A stretch of DNA of 64,000 nt from Minisyncoccota bacterium (GCA_035546615.1 DASZWM010000002.1:15460-79459); one strand, 5' to 3'. Shown: positions 18,541 through 23,576, numbered from the stretch's first letter. The notes: generated by a model from the sequence alone, not told the origin. A program made the numbers and translations.

Positions 18541-19842
18541 ATGTCCACGTTCCAAATCGTCGTCCTCGGCATCTTTTCTTCGCTTATCCTTATAGGCGTC
18601 GGCGTGTTCGCCGCCTTTGGCGGCGTGCTGGGCGGCGCGGCCATCGGCCCGGTTACTATTTGGGGCACGCTTGATAGGAACACGATGGACGGTCTTATAG
18701 AGGCCCTGCGCGCGGAGGACAAGGGCTTTGAAACCGTTACCTATGTGCAGAAAAGCGAAGCCGCGTACGAGGGCGACCTGGTAAACGCCATGGCATCCGG
18801 CTCCGGCCCCGATCTGTTCCTCCTTTCGGGCGACGAGGTGCTCCCGTTTTCCGACAAGATACTCACCATTCCGTACGGCTCCATTTCGCAGGGAAGCTAC
18901 TTAGCTTCGTACGTGGACGAGGCGCAGCTATTTTTGACGCCGCAGGGCGTGCAGGCGCTGCCCTTCACGCTCGACCCCCTCGTGATGTACTGGAATCGCG
19001 ACCTTTTCGCCTCCGCCGGCATCGCGTCGCCGCCGAGCGTCTGGAGCGAGTTTTTGACGCTGGCGCCCAAGATAACCTCGCTCGATACCCGGTCCACCGT
19101 GCAGAAAAGCGCGGTGGCACTCGGCGAATGGCGCAACATTCCGCACGCCAAGGATATTCTTGCCGCCCTGTTCATGCAGGTGGGGGACACTATCGTCGCC
19201 CGCGACGGTGCCGGAGCGCCTACGGTTACGTTCGGCTCGGAGCCCGAAGGCTCGGCCGGCAATCCGGCGGAGTCGGCCCTGCGCTTCTATACCGAGTTCG
19301 CAAATCCTTCAAAGACCAGCTACTCGTGGAACCGGGCGCTGCCTCCGGCGGCTGACGCGTTCGTGTCGGGCGACGTGGGCGTCTACTTTGGCTTCGCAAG
19401 CGAGTATACGGAAATTAGCCAGCGCAACCCTAACTTGCGGTTCGGCGTCGCGCTTCTGCCGCAGATAGACCAGGGCGGAAGCCGGGTCACCTACGGCGAC
19501 ATCACCGGCATCGCTATAGCGCGCACGGCAGCGAACGTTAAAGGCGCGCTTACGGTAGCGCAGATACTCTCGGGCAAAACATCGGTCGGCATTATCTCCG
19601 GAGCGCTCTCCTTGCCGCCCGTTCGGCGCGATGTCGCGGTGGATACCGCATCCAGCGCCACAGCGGGCGTCTTCGTGCAGTCGGGGCTTATCGCGCGCGG
19701 CTGGCTTGATCCGTCCCCGAAAGGAAGCGATACCGTGTTCCAGACCATGATAGAATCCGTGGTGAGCGGCAAGGAGGCGCCCGCCACTGCGGTAAGCGAA
19801 GGCAAGGGGGCGCTCAGCGAGCTGCTGCCGTCGACCAGATAA
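18541..19842 (+). CDS. ABC transporter substrate-binding protein (family 1 SBP), membrane-anchored, orphan
   Basis: N-terminal TM anchor followed by an SBP_bac_1-like body (VTIWGTLD..., LPFTLDPLVMYWNRDLF, GDVGVYFGFASEY). No permease or ATPase nearby. Confidence 0.55.
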   Translation: MSTFQIVVLGIFSSLILIGVGVFAAFGGVLGGAAIGPVTIWGTLDRNTMDGLIEALRAEDKGFETVTYVQKSEAAYEGDLVNAMASGSGPDLFLLSGDEVLPFSDKILTIPYGSISQGSYLASYVDEAQLFLTPQGVQALPFTLDPLVMYWNRDLFASAGIASPPSVWSEFLTLAPKITSLDTRSTVQKSAVALGEWRNIPHAKDILAALFMQVGDTIVARDGAGAPTVTFGSEPEGSAGNPAESALRFYTEFANPSKTSYSWNRALPPAADAFVSGDVGVYFGFASEYTEISQRNPNLRFGVALLPQIDQGGSRVTYGDITGIAIARTAANVKGALTVAQILSGKTSVGIISGALSLPPVRRDVAVDTASSATAGVFVQSGLIARGWLDPSPKGSDTVFQTMIESVVSGKEAPATAVSEGKGALSELLPSTR

Positions 19843-19845
19843 GCG

Positions 19846-20328
19846 ATGAAACTATTTTTCTTCAAGCATAAGGAAGTCATGCGCGTGCTATTTACGGTGA
19901 CAATATTCTTATTGCCAATCATAGCTCTTGGGGCAACTTCTTCGGGCGGCAATACGTTGCCCACGTCCTCCGGCGGCAACACCTTGCCGACCTCCTATGG
20001 CGGCAATACGGCAAATTCAGGCGACAACTGCGACCCCAGGGTCCAGGTATGCAACCCGCTCCAGTTCCATAGCATCTGCGGCCTGGTGACCGGCGTGTTG
20101 GATGCCATCATGGTAATCGGCATTCCGATAGCTATAATGTTCGTCGTATGGGCCGGATTTAAATTCGTCGTAGCGCAAGGCAATCCGGAATCCATTTCAC
20201 AGGCTAAAACCAATTTTCTGCATGTCATCATCGGCATCGCCATATTCGTGGGTGCTTCGCTAATCGCGCATGTCATCATGCAAACGATCGAAAATCTCGG
20301 AGTGACCGGCATTAGTTCCTGCCAATAA
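19846..20328 (+). CDS. TrbC/VirB2-like pilin-family membrane protein, paralog 1
   Basis: N-terminal signal-like region with GGNTLPTSS repeats and a Cys pair, then two TM helices separated by a short polar loop (IPIAIMFVVWAGFKFV ... NFLHVIIGIAIFVGASLIA). Confidence 0.5.
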   Translation: MKLFFFKHKEVMRVLFTVTIFLLPIIALGATSSGGNTLPTSSGGNTLPTSYGGNTANSGDNCDPRVQVCNPLQFHSICGLVTGVLDAIMVIGIPIAIMFVVWAGFKFVVAQGNPESISQAKTNFLHVIIGIAIFVGASLIAHVIMQTIENLGVTGISSCQ

Positions 20329-20329
20329 T

Positions 20330-21419: not shown

Positions 21420-21480
21420 CTTTTAGAAATAGAAAAGGCGCGGGAAAGAAATTTCCCGCGCCCTCAGTGTTGTTGACCTC

Positions 21481-22302
21481 CTAGTTGTACCGGGGAGGCG
21501 AGAGTGCGACCCCCAGTATGAAGGGAGTGTCGGCGCTCCATGCCCACTCGGCGTCGTTTGGGAGACTTCCTCCACACACCTCGTAAGGGGTGGTATCTCC
21601 CGTCCATGCGGCACGCTGGACGATAATGCAGTGCCCGTCGTGCCACAGGTCCGGCGCGCACATGCCGCCGGGATTGAAGTTAGTGGGCGTTTCAGTATCC
21701 AGCGCGTAGCTTGTCTTCGAGGAACATGAATCCTGCGGACCCACGCTTCCGACAGCTACCTGCTCCGGCGCGCCACTGCCGCTCATGAGCGAAGCCAGCA
21801 TCGGAATTGCGAAGAACCCGAGCAGGATGGTGAGGAAGACAGCGAATACCCGCCGCCCTCCTTTGCTGGTAAGTACCAGCACCGCCGTAGCCAACATGCC
21901 TGCAACGAGCAGACCTGTGAGCAATTGCGTTGTGAAGAACTTCGCTGCTGCCGTGCCTGTATTTCCTACGCTCGCCCAGATCGAAGCCTGGAATGAAGCA
22001 AGGAAGGCAAGCGGAGCGAGCAGCGCGGTGGCAAGCACAATCAGAGTGATCGCCACTGCCACCCAAAGCCACCGAGGCAAGGCATACCACCGGGGACCGG
22101 TATGGGTCGCGGGTTCTTCGTGCCCGTGGCCACCACCCGCCGCAGGAGCGGCGGGTGCAGCTGCAGGCGTATGTACTGCCGGGGGAAGAGTCGCTCTCCC
22201 GGCAGGTGTTCTTGTTCTGCGCCCCCTGCTGAGCATGGCTGCGGAAAATATGATCGCAACGATACCAGCAGAGGCGACAGCGATAATCCAACCCTGAAGC
22301 AT
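21481..22302 (-). CDS. multi-TM membrane protein with Cys-containing extracytoplasmic C-terminal domain
   Basis: Several TM helices, a Pro/Ala-rich linker, and four Cys in the C-terminal domain. Overlaps the upstream SPFH gene stop. Confidence 0.5.
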   Translation of the reverse strand: MLQGWIIAVASAGIVAIIFSAAMLSRGRRTRTPAGRATLPPAVHTPAAAPAAPAAGGGHGHEEPATHTGPRWYALPRWLWVAVAITLIVLATALLAPLAFLASFQASIWASVGNTGTAAAKFFTTQLLTGLLVAGMLATAVLVLTSKGGRRVFAVFLTILLGFFAIPMLASLMSGSGAPEQVAVGSVGPQDSCSSKTSYALDTETPTNFNPGGMCAPDLWHDGHCIIVQRAAWTGDTTPYEVCGGSLPNDAEWAWSADTPFILGVALSPPRYN

Positions 22303-23576
22303 TACGTTTCAGCTCCTTCTCTAAGTCTACGGACCTCGCGTATGAGAGCAGCCTGTCCTGGGTCGATTTGAGCTCCACCCAGGATTACGATGCCGCCGTT
22401 CCTTCCGGCCGCTTCGGCCGCGCGAACCGTACCTTCGATCTGGGGAATGACAGTGGCGTCGGGGTATTCCTTGAGCGCTGCGCCGGTTTCCCGTATCAGT
22501 GCCGCCTGCCCCTTCGCCCGTTCGATTTGGGCATCCTTGTCCACCCGGGCTATCGCGAGGTCGCCAAGGCGAGCTCCGATAGCCGGATTTGTCGGAGTAA
22601 TGTCCCGGATTTGCACCCGGACGTTCATTACGCCGAAGTCCAGCGTCGTACCGTCGGTGGTTTTTGCATCCACCGCCGGAGCCGGCTTTCCCGTGCGGGC
22701 GATGGCGTCTGCCAATTCCCGCGCCTCGTCTTCGTCCTGTGCTGATAGTACCGCGTTTAGGGAGTGCGACCTCGTGAACGCGGTTACAGCATCGGAAGTA
22801 GTAGTTAGCAGGCGGCGAGTCCAGTCATCATCCGTGTTATAGGCCGTATCGTACGGGTTGGTAACCCGCTCGATAAGGTCGACATGGATACTCACGGGAA
22901 TCTTGTCCTGCGTGTCCGCCTTGGGGATGATGATGGGATAGAGGAAGTCAGCGACACGATAGTGGTCGCTATAGTCCTCGACCCGTACGAAGTCAACTTC
23001 CCCGTCCGGTCGGGTAATTTCCTTGAAGCGTTCGACCGGATACACGCGGATGTTCTGGAAGGGCGGGATGCCGGTGAATATGGCACCCGTGATCCAGTAG
23101 GTCCAACGCTTCCATGCCCACCAGAGAACGCTGATAGGCGAGTAGAGCAGCCAGACGAAAAAGAACCACCCGCGTTTTCTTCCCGGAAAGGGTATAGGAT
23201 GAGAGTCGGTATAGCCGCCCTCGCCCGGCAGATTCGTTTCCTCCACCTTCCAATAGGCGTTATCACGCCGATGGAGGGGGTTATCTTTCTCGCCTTTGAA
23301 CTTATGCCCTTCGAATGCCATGATGGCATCGACGAACCGCTGCCCGCGCTCCTTGATCTTCACCCGGCCTGGTTGCAGGTAGGTGAAAAAGCCGGCACGC
23401 GACGGCGGGTAATTCAGCTCATTGTTCCAGTCGTCCGGACGATATTCGTTCGGGTCGTTGGTGAGCCGATCGACGGCATGCGGTATAAGCGGCAGAAGAA
23501 AGAGCACGGCAAAGATACCTGCTCCCGCCCATGCCACCCAACCAAGTACCGTTACGAGCGTGAACAGAATTTCCAT
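22302..23576 (-). CDS. SPFH/Band-7 (stomatin/prohibitin-like) domain membrane protein
   Basis: N-terminal TM, a beta-rich core, and a C-terminal Ala/Glu-rich coiled helix (AIGARLGDLAIARVDKDAQIERAKGQAALIRETGAALKEY) typical of SPFH proteins. Confidence 0.5.
   Translation of the reverse strand: MEILFTLVTVLGWVAWAGAGIFAVLFLLPLIPHAVDRLTNDPNEYRPDDWNNELNYPPSRAGFFTYLQPGRVKIKERGQRFVDAIMAFEGHKFKGEKDNPLHRRDNAYWKVEETNLPGEGGYTDSHPIPFPGRKRGWFFFVWLLYSPISVLWWAWKRWTYWITGAIFTGIPPFQNIRVYPVERFKEITRPDGEVDFVRVEDYSDHYRVADFLYPIIIPKADTQDKIPVSIHVDLIERVTNPYDTAYNTDDDWTRRLLTTTSDAVTAFTRSHSLNAVLSAQDEDEARELADAIARTGKPAPAVDAKTTDGTTLDFGVMNVRVQIRDITPTNPAIGARLGDLAIARVDKDAQIERAKGQAALIRETGAALKEYPDATVIPQIEGTVRAAEAAGRNGGIVILGGAQIDPGQAALIREVRRLREGAET

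Follow-up and report, generated by a model that had tools for sequence, protein, structure and literature searches.

Four pilin-like genes in a conserved operon with a MalE-like solute-binding protein gene near gyrA: a candidate trans-encoded VirB2-like pilin set in Paceibacteria

A 2025 review describes the type IV secretion systems (T4SSs) of Patescibacteria as the only pilin-bearing T4SSs of monoderm bacteria. Using searches with the families PF04956 and PF18895, Quinonero-Coronel et al. (2025, PMC12102498) catalogued 441 arrays of 2-11 pilin genes in 383 assemblies, with a mean identity of ~25%. Of the 1,948 Patescibacteria assemblies in which VirB4 and VirB2-like pilins occur together, only 1,135 had a pilin gene close to virB4 in that survey. 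In Candidatus Southlakia epibionticum ML1, the T4SS cluster includes an array of six PF18895 genes (SEML1_0014-0019) that is essential (Wang et al. 2023, PMC10633639). Here we analyse a 64-kb stretch of a Candidatus Paceibacterota metagenome-assembled genome (MAG), referred to throughout as the window, and within it a gene array (subregion 18541-23576) in which four small pilin-like genes, g1 to g4, follow the gene of a solute-binding protein (SBP). Because such arrays have been published for Patescibacteria, a tandem divergent pilin array is already a described kind in these bacteria; the array of the window falls within the published span of 2-11 divergent tandem genes, and related loci hold 2-7.

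We propose, with moderate confidence, that the four genes encode a set of VirB2-like pilins that serves a chromosomal Patescibacteria T4SS in trans and is co-expressed with a tethered oligosaccharide-binding protein. Consistent with this, the host is a Paceibacterota MAG and published pilins often lie far from virB4. The analysis directly shows the family membership of g1 and g2, the homology of all four proteins, the hairpin fold, the conservation of the operon and of its ordered classes, and the local absence of ATPase and permease genes.

A Pfam search placed g1 and g2 above the gathering threshold of PF18895 (T4SS_pilin, 26.6 bits; scores in Table 1). When the related loci described below were used to build a profile for each class of array protein, hhalign returned probabilities of 93.7-100% for all pairs of classes (for example, B against D 99.9%, B against C 99.8% and A against B 97%), although hydrophobic helices inflate such scores. 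An AlphaFold2 (AF2) model of g3 built from 106 homologues (mean predicted local distance difference test score, pLDDT, of 80) showed a signal-peptide helix followed by helices at residues 27-62 and 68-100 with a five-residue loop between them. Searched against sequences of the PDB, the class B profile had as its top match the pKM101 VirB2 pilin TraM (8cw4), a weak hit at E = 0.061. The best NCBIfam model for g1, g2 and g4 was NF045849, the Mycoplasma 'Mbov_0395 family pilin-like conjugal transfer protein' of integrative and conjugative elements (ICEs), with scores (22.8, 30.8 and 19.8 bits, respectively) that all lie below its cut-off of 40. Judged by these profile comparisons, g1 and g2 are members of PF18895 and all four proteins are mutually homologous helical hairpins; this homology is not a chance result, because the PF18895 scores are accompanied by class profile pairs at 94-100% and by orthologues in more than 76 genomes.

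An earlier note, made from the nucleotide sequence of the window, had read the four proteins as TrbC/VirB2-like pilins, each with an N-terminal signal-like region and two hydrophobic helices around a short polar loop. The family reading holds through PF18895, the class profiles and the predicted helix-loop-helix, and fails at the TrbC/VirB2 family PF04956 itself, for which all four are below threshold. The two helices and their loop are borne out by the AF2 model of g3 and by hydropathy in each class, and the motif given there (of the type IxPhLhhLhLVxFhWGhVxY) agrees with the alignment consensus. The signal-like region is found on g1 and g3; g2 and g4 have two hydrophobic segments only, a pattern conserved in their classes. 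The same note had named an unrelated small-membrane-protein family, such as holins, as the finding that would overturn it, and a reading of this kind, in which holin-like or spurious open reading frames (ORFs) resemble pilins only in hydropathy, draws on the two proteins of the four that fall below the Pfam threshold, on the inflation of profile scores by hydrophobic hairpins and on a fold search that is non-specific. We reject it as very improbable: none of five proteins tested matched any PHROG family, holins included, at E <= 0.1; the PF18895 threshold is exceeded not only by g1 and g2 but also by four array ORFs of a related locus (L059, below); and the array proteins have orthologues in over 76 genomes, each of a separate species, where the surrounding genes are of housekeeping and not prophage type.

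The four genes are not interchangeable copies. Pairwise identity among them is 14-38%, and when 316 hairpin domains were clustered, they grouped by array position rather than by genome. The window proteins share 38-47% identity with their own class and 18-29% with other classes (median identity to class orthologues is 39% for g1 in class A and 47% for g4 in class C), and their order is A-D-B-C. The commonest patterns across loci are ADBC, HADBC, ABBC and ADBBC, with EAB..C in more distant genomes. Class A proteins (g1) combine a signal peptide with a Ser/Gly/Thr/Pro-rich linker and a two-helix hairpin, an arrangement conserved across genomes; g1 itself has four Cys and three tandem SSGGNTLPT-like repeats. 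A Cys just before helix 1 and another within the last eight residues occur together in 20 of 29 class A proteins, which suggests a disulfide joining the two extracellular ends of the hairpin. Class D lacks a signal peptide, and g2, its window member, continues from the hairpin into a Cys- and Gly-rich C-terminal tail. Class B (g3) has a signal peptide (MKKTA...AFA|Q in g3), a hairpin, a PQVP tail and no Cys. Class C, always the last gene of the array, lacks a signal peptide; g4, its window member, has two Cys in its N-terminal tail. No third hydrophobic segment was present in classes D and C across genomes. Since class B is conserved best and is also the class found in duplicate (ABBC, ADBBC), it is a candidate major subunit. 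An ancient ordered set of this kind is more readily understood as one major subunit (B) accompanied by three specialised subunits than as a fast-varying antigenic repertoire.

The position of the array was equally constant. One genome per GTDB species was scanned with the SBP; 293 genomes matched, and the best 80 loci (39-73% identity), labelled as Adler-, Nomura-, Campbell-, Yonath- or Taylorbacteria or as Paceibacterota, were analysed. Pilin-like ORFs lay directly 3' of the SBP gene, on the same strand, in all 76 loci that had enough downstream sequence to be assessed, and a hidden Markov model (HMM) of the pilin family, made from 122 homologues, matched only 5 times elsewhere in the ~1.3 Mb of total locus sequence. 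Where at least 3 kb of room was available (57 loci), arrays comprised four genes in 27 loci, five in 22, two in 4, six in 2 and seven in 2. In 52 of 68 loci, no more than 30 nt separated the stop codon of the SBP gene from the start of the first pilin gene, and often the two overlapped (-4 or -1). Upstream, a methyltransferase gene immediately precedes the SBP gene on the same strand in 77 of the 80 loci (spaced 9 nt from it in the window), and gyrA follows further upstream in 65. Three relatives found through their pilins instead gave the same picture: gyrA, methyltransferase, SBP, four pilin-like genes, variable genes and then rbfA-infB. Because of this conservation across loci, the SBP, which the earlier note had called an orphan, is on the evidence of gene order the true operon partner of the array.

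The other neighbours fared differently. The convergent genes for a 273-aa multi-transmembrane protein and a 424-aa SPFH protein exist where the earlier note had placed them, and their proposed membership in the module is ruled out by synteny: homologues of the SPFH protein occur in only 4 of the 80 loci and those of the 273-aa protein in only 3, so the pair is an unrelated neighbour. The methyltransferase was considered, and set aside, as a pilin-modifying enzyme. Its link to the array is one of adjacency, and inherited synteny is enough to explain it, as gyrA is similarly conserved next to the methyltransferase gene; against NCBIfam the enzyme gave generic UbiE/ArsM-like matches only, far below cut-offs. 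In the searchable literature we did not find a description of a methyltransferase-SBP-A-D-B-C operon beside gyrA in Paceibacteria, and we regard it as an organisational variant of the known arrays.

The SBP matches SBP_bac_1 in Pfam (Table 1). Its AF2 model (pLDDT 84.5) comprises an N-terminal transmembrane helix at residues 3-26 and a complete two-lobe fold, for which Foldseek returned maltodextrin, maltotriose, cyclic-maltosyl-maltose and acarbose binding proteins (TM-scores of 0.66-0.81 at 14-20% identity). The nearest solved sequences are likewise sugar-binding SBPs, and database names for the family are generic only. A search of 10 kb around the 80 loci found no conserved cluster of ATP-binding cassette (ABC) permease and ATPase genes. 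The protein is, as modelled, a membrane-anchored MalE-like oligosaccharide-binding fold without nearby ABC genes. The main text of the 2025 survey (PMC12102498) makes no mention of solute-binding proteins, and the Southlakia T4SS cluster contains no SBP_bac_1 gene (Wang et al. 2023, PMC10633639). Another stand-alone SBP, SEML1_0634, appears in a supplementary table of Wang et al. (2023) as important to the epibiotic lifestyle.

These properties raise the alternative that the five proteins form an envelope complex independent of any T4SS. The tethered SBP and four hairpins (eight transmembrane helices) would then be an uptake, sensing or anchoring unit for host oligosaccharides, with the PF18895 hairpin acting as a membrane module and not as a polymerising pilin. 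Such a complex would account for the invariant, translationally coupled linkage of SBP and hairpins, for the fixed stoichiometry that fixed ordered classes suggest, and for an intact MalE-like fold without a neighbouring ABC permease. It would also sit well with the lack of VirB4 or type IV coupling protein (T4CP) genes within 10 kb in the 80 loci and with the ability of the hairpin to anchor unrelated extracellular domains (S8 protease, Cys-rich repeats). We nevertheless judge it unlikely. We know of no precedent for a set of two-helix hairpins as an SBP-dependent transporter, and no energising ATPase accompanies the genes; the PF18895 family sits inside essential T4SS clusters of Saccharimonadia, most relatives have VirB4, and the copy number of class B varies, which would be unusual in a fixed complex.

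A closer union of the two parts can also be imagined. The MalE-like SBP may be an integral extracellular part of the pilin apparatus, a glycan receptor that couples the binding of host-wall sugars to assembly or gating of the four-subunit VirB2-like structure, or the five proteins may be a T4SS-independent conduit for host oligosaccharides; we hold this pair of possibilities to be doubtful. If either were true, it would represent a new functional union of the periplasmic-binding-protein fold with conjugative-type pilins. In PrgZ (pCF10) and ChvE (Agrobacterium), that fold serves as a T4SS ligand sensor and is not purely nutritional, ChvE binding sugars; both proteins belong to other SBP families, their action is mediated by an ABC importer or sensor kinase, and neither shares an operon with pilin genes.

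A scan of all ORFs of at least 480 aa found no VirB4/VirD4-type ATPase in the 64-kb window, as the earlier note had also stated. The same held around related arrays: within 10 kb in the 80 loci, no Walker-A ORF of at least 480 aa was present except infB and clpB, and the three relatives found through their pilins had no T4SS ATPase family within 10 kb. In the sense of PMC12102498 (within about 20 coding sequences, CDS), the array is therefore not near virB4, as judged from the window and from 10 kb in the 80 loci. The step from this local absence to an appendage that is not a canonical T4SS over-reads it. When nine module-bearing relatives were matched to Table S1 of PMC12102498, seven were VirB4-positive elsewhere in the genome, among them the complete genome from Campbellbacteria and a close relative, Gr01-1014_56; the two that were not positive are incomplete assemblies. 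Another view comes from Parcubacteria GW2011_GWA1_47_8 (GCA_000996605.1; locus L059), for which Table S3 of PMC12102498 gives consecutive VirB4-TrsD-VirB3 genes and a T4CP but no VirB2. In this genome the four ORFs after the SBP gene (one at the class A position, then D, B and C) score 31-37 bits on PF18895, and an extra leading gene scores 16.7. Because its core genes are listed without VirB2 yet its SBP-linked ORFs match PF18895, the gyrA-proximal array in this lineage probably supplies the pilins to a core whose genes lie elsewhere. Published inventories may under-count SBP-linked arrays, possibly through unannotated small ORFs.

A further alternative is a pilus for DNA import or exchange resembling the archaeal Ced and Ted systems, in which the pilins would serve nucleic-acid acquisition together with competence genes. 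Patescibacteria T4SS clusters are mostly without relaxases and, in class ABY1, lie near comF, recG and radA; the Ced/Ted systems are among the VirB4 references in Table S2 of the Patescibacteria T4SS paper; and DprA is indeed encoded in the window (47665-48525, minus strand), as the earlier note had pointed out. That gene is, however, 26 kb from the array in a housekeeping region, and none of the gene clusters conserved across the 80 loci corresponds to it. A link between array and DNA uptake has no support beyond a shared 64-kb chromosomal window. Nor does a sugar-type SBP point to DNA. The Southlakia T4SS is essential, whereas a mutation that abolished natural transformation left viability unaffected, as stated in a passage of PMC12857230. 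We consider this function improbable, more so than an envelope complex.

We infer pilus formation, VirB4 dependence, major and minor roles and an SBP function from the features above, and propose the following mechanism for a pilin set acting in trans. The pilins would be encoded apart from a virB4-trsD-virB3 core and would be co-transcribed, and partly translationally coupled, with the membrane-anchored MalE-like SBP. The products of g1 (class A) and g3 (class B) would enter the membrane via Sec and be cleaved by signal peptidase I, a gene for which is within the window, while those of g2 (D) and g4 (C) would insert as uncleaved hairpins; in all four, the two ends would face outwards and the short charged loop would lie on the cytoplasmic side. 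Class B would be the major polymerising subunit, and classes A, D and C would be minor or specialised subunits of fixed stoichiometry, for priming, the tip or the base. A VirB4 machine encoded elsewhere in the genome would then pull the subunits out of the membrane and assemble them into a pilus or conduit that is used at the surface of the host cell. The SBP would stay tethered to the membrane as an accessory factor, most plausibly binding an oligosaccharide of the host's or its own cell wall to target or gate the apparatus; alternatively, it could act as a pilin chaperone.

Several observations weigh against a trans-encoded pilin set. Two of the four proteins, g4 and g3, miss the PF18895 threshold (Table 1), and all four miss that of PF04956 (27.9 bits), with scores of 22.8 for g1 and 11.7 for g3 and no match for g2 or g4. 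The class A profile had no relevant match, and no solved pilin, among PDB sequences. Foldseek of the g3 hairpin against the PDB returned generic helical hairpins only, none at E <= 1e-3; a bare two-helix fold is one that such a search does not discriminate. Four fixed orthologue classes and an SBP are no less expected of a hetero-oligomeric complex in the membrane than of a variable repertoire of pilins. The VirB4 evidence comes from the nine relatives, the present MAG being covered for 64 kb, and the role assigned to the SBP is purely inferred. Finally, a pilus has not yet been observed in any Patescibacterium, and the essentiality data are only for Saccharimonadia arrays, which lie inside a T4SS cluster and are without an SBP (PMC10633639).

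The array does not account for every pilin-like gene of the window. A fifth PF18895 protein, encoded at a distance from the array (Table 1), has a signal peptide, a Cys pair and a PF18895 hairpin followed by a ~240-aa Cys-rich C-terminal domain without a family; it probably belongs to the system of the array. At the corresponding position after clpB in another relative (L007), a gene matches T4SS_pilin and, weakly, SLT (lytic transglycosylase), and also ClpB_D2-small, which marks it as a merged gene call; the region of the fifth gene could encode a VirB1-like component. Three nucleotides after the fifth gene, a 202-aa membrane-anchored or secreted protein without a family is encoded at 33418-34026 (plus strand). 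More distant Paceibacteria can have, immediately after the SBP gene, a gene for an extracellular domain fused to a C-terminal PF18895 hairpin: a Peptidase_S8 subtilase-hairpin fusion in one locus (L064:4710-6344) and Cys-rich-repeat-hairpin fusions in another (L084:11282-12418 and 12363-13337). The hairpin may accordingly display extracellular domains in the manner of minor or tip pilins, and these fusions are equally compatible with a plain membrane anchor.

The features of the region are collected in Table 1. On the plus strand the SBP gene and g1 to g4 are separated by 3 (or 36), 1, 79 and 6 nt, in agreement with the four consecutive small genes, 1-80 nt apart, of the earlier description. 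The two values for g1 reflect its start: an ATG at 19879 has a Shine-Dalgarno-like AAGGAAG upstream, and the public gene call begins there. For g3, the mechanical ORF opens at a TTG (20595) and overlaps g2, and the ATG at 20766 yields MKKTA.... Public proteins identical to the window pilins carry the locus tags VHD55_00505 to 00515 and are encoded on a contig of 125,660 bp. The 79-nt spacer between g2 and g3 supports no structured RNA element (fold z = 0.01), and Rfam detected tRNAs only over the window. A hairpin between the convergent operons likely ends the array transcript.

Table 1. Position, strand and supporting evidence of the array genes, their neighbours and the unlinked fifth pilin-domain gene.
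Feature	Position in window	Strand	Evidence
Methyltransferase, class I S-adenosylmethionine (SAM)-dependent, 203 aa	17920-18531	+	Pfam Methyltransf_31/11/25
SBP, family 1, membrane-anchored, MalE-like fold, 433 aa	18541-19842	+	SBP_bac_1 73.6 bits
g1, class A pilin-like, 149 aa (160 aa from 19846)	19879-20328	+	PF18895 36.3 bits
g2, class D pilin-like, 118 aa	20330-20686	+	PF18895 34.0 bits; NF045849 30.8 bits
g3, class B pilin-like, 115 aa	20766-21113	+	PF18895 17.4 bits (sub-threshold); hhalign; AF2
g4, class C pilin-like, 99 aa	21120-21419	+	PF18895 23.3 bits (sub-threshold)
GC-rich 14-bp hairpin, likely bidirectional terminator	21434-21465		Terminator-like site between convergent operons
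Multi-transmembrane ORF, 273 aa, without family	21481-22302	-	ORF; Pfam no match
SPFH/Band_7 ORF, 424 aa	22302-23576	-	Band_7 32.7 bits
Fifth pilin-domain protein, 366 aa, unlinked to array	32314-33414	+	PF18895 28.4 bits; family HMM E = 2.5e-10

The SPFH and 273-aa genes overlap at 22302; upstream of them, at 23681-23652, lies a perfect sigma-70 consensus (TTGACA-18-TATAAT, extended TG). They form what appears to be an independent two-gene operon resembling SPFH-NfeD-type pairs, although an NfeD domain was not detected, and neither protein matched PHROGs. Beyond them, a tRNA cluster on both strands (23736-24541; Leu-taa, Leu-tag, Lys-ctt and Cys-gca) fills the space before rbfA-infB, an interval that is variable in relatives. 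The remainder of the window is core chromosome, with genes for FtsA, signal peptidase I, RpsA-like, GyrA, IF-2, ClpB, ParB, RelA and TopA, as well as an AcrB/HlyD pair, DprA, SerRS, a DnaX-like gene and eight tRNAs. The AcrB-type resistance-nodulation-division (RND) pump (1034 aa, 612 bits) and its HlyD-family adaptor, at 42048-46699 on the minus strand, are encoded in a presumed monoderm genome of the Candidate Phyla Radiation (CPR), and the window showed no outer-membrane factor. A low-GC island at ~55500-58700 (37% against ~58%), just after tRNA-Gln (55432-55503), encodes membrane proteins of 557 and 185 aa and two small proteins; neither membrane protein matched a Pfam or PHROG family or reached the cut-off of an NCBIfam model, and the island looks horizontally acquired.

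Much of the diversity of uncultured bacteria belongs to the Patescibacteria, which appear to live on other cells. Among envelope machines, only their T4SSs and pilin arrays, together with type IV pili, have been shown to be essential to that lifestyle. In Paceibacteria, the largest class, a conserved and translationally coupled SBP beside four fixed pilin classes offers a testable handle on host recognition. Pilin genes of this class lie by gyrA rather than virB4, and for at least one genome the published survey does not list them; both points affect inventories of T4SS components.

Set against known systems, the array proteins share with canonical TrbC/VirB2 pilins of diderm T4SSs, such as pKM101 TraM, a small and hydrophobic two-helix hairpin, a short charged loop and, in g1 and g3, a cleavable signal peptide; the putative end-to-end disulfide of class A recalls the head-to-tail cyclisation of those pilins. 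They differ in scoring below the PF04956 threshold, in the absence of a signal peptide from g2 and g4, in their monoderm host and in having no adjacent VirB3-B11 genes. The Mycoplasma ICE family NF045849 likewise comprises small hairpin proteins of a monoderm, MPF-FATA-type system, but the array proteins score too low to be members, and NF045849 is ICE-borne rather than part of a chromosomal core. The VirB2 expansions of Bartonella and Anaplasma, as cited in PMC12102498, also consist of several tandem divergent copies; they are read there as antigenic or host-range variation by lineage-specific copies, whereas the classes described here are ancient and fixed in position, and only B varies in copy number. 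With the published Patescibacteria arrays, the window array shares the PF18895 family with weak PF04956 scores, tandem same-strand divergent paralogues (14-38% identity here, ~25% published) and a chromosomal location in a monoderm CPR host with no relaxase context. In ML1, however, the six pilin genes are within a T4SS cluster that has no SBP_bac_1 gene, whereas here the array is away from any VirB4; and what distinguishes it from the published arrays is its fixed association, beside gyrA, with genes for a methyltransferase and a MalE-like SBP, and its four ordered orthologue classes across Paceibacteria.

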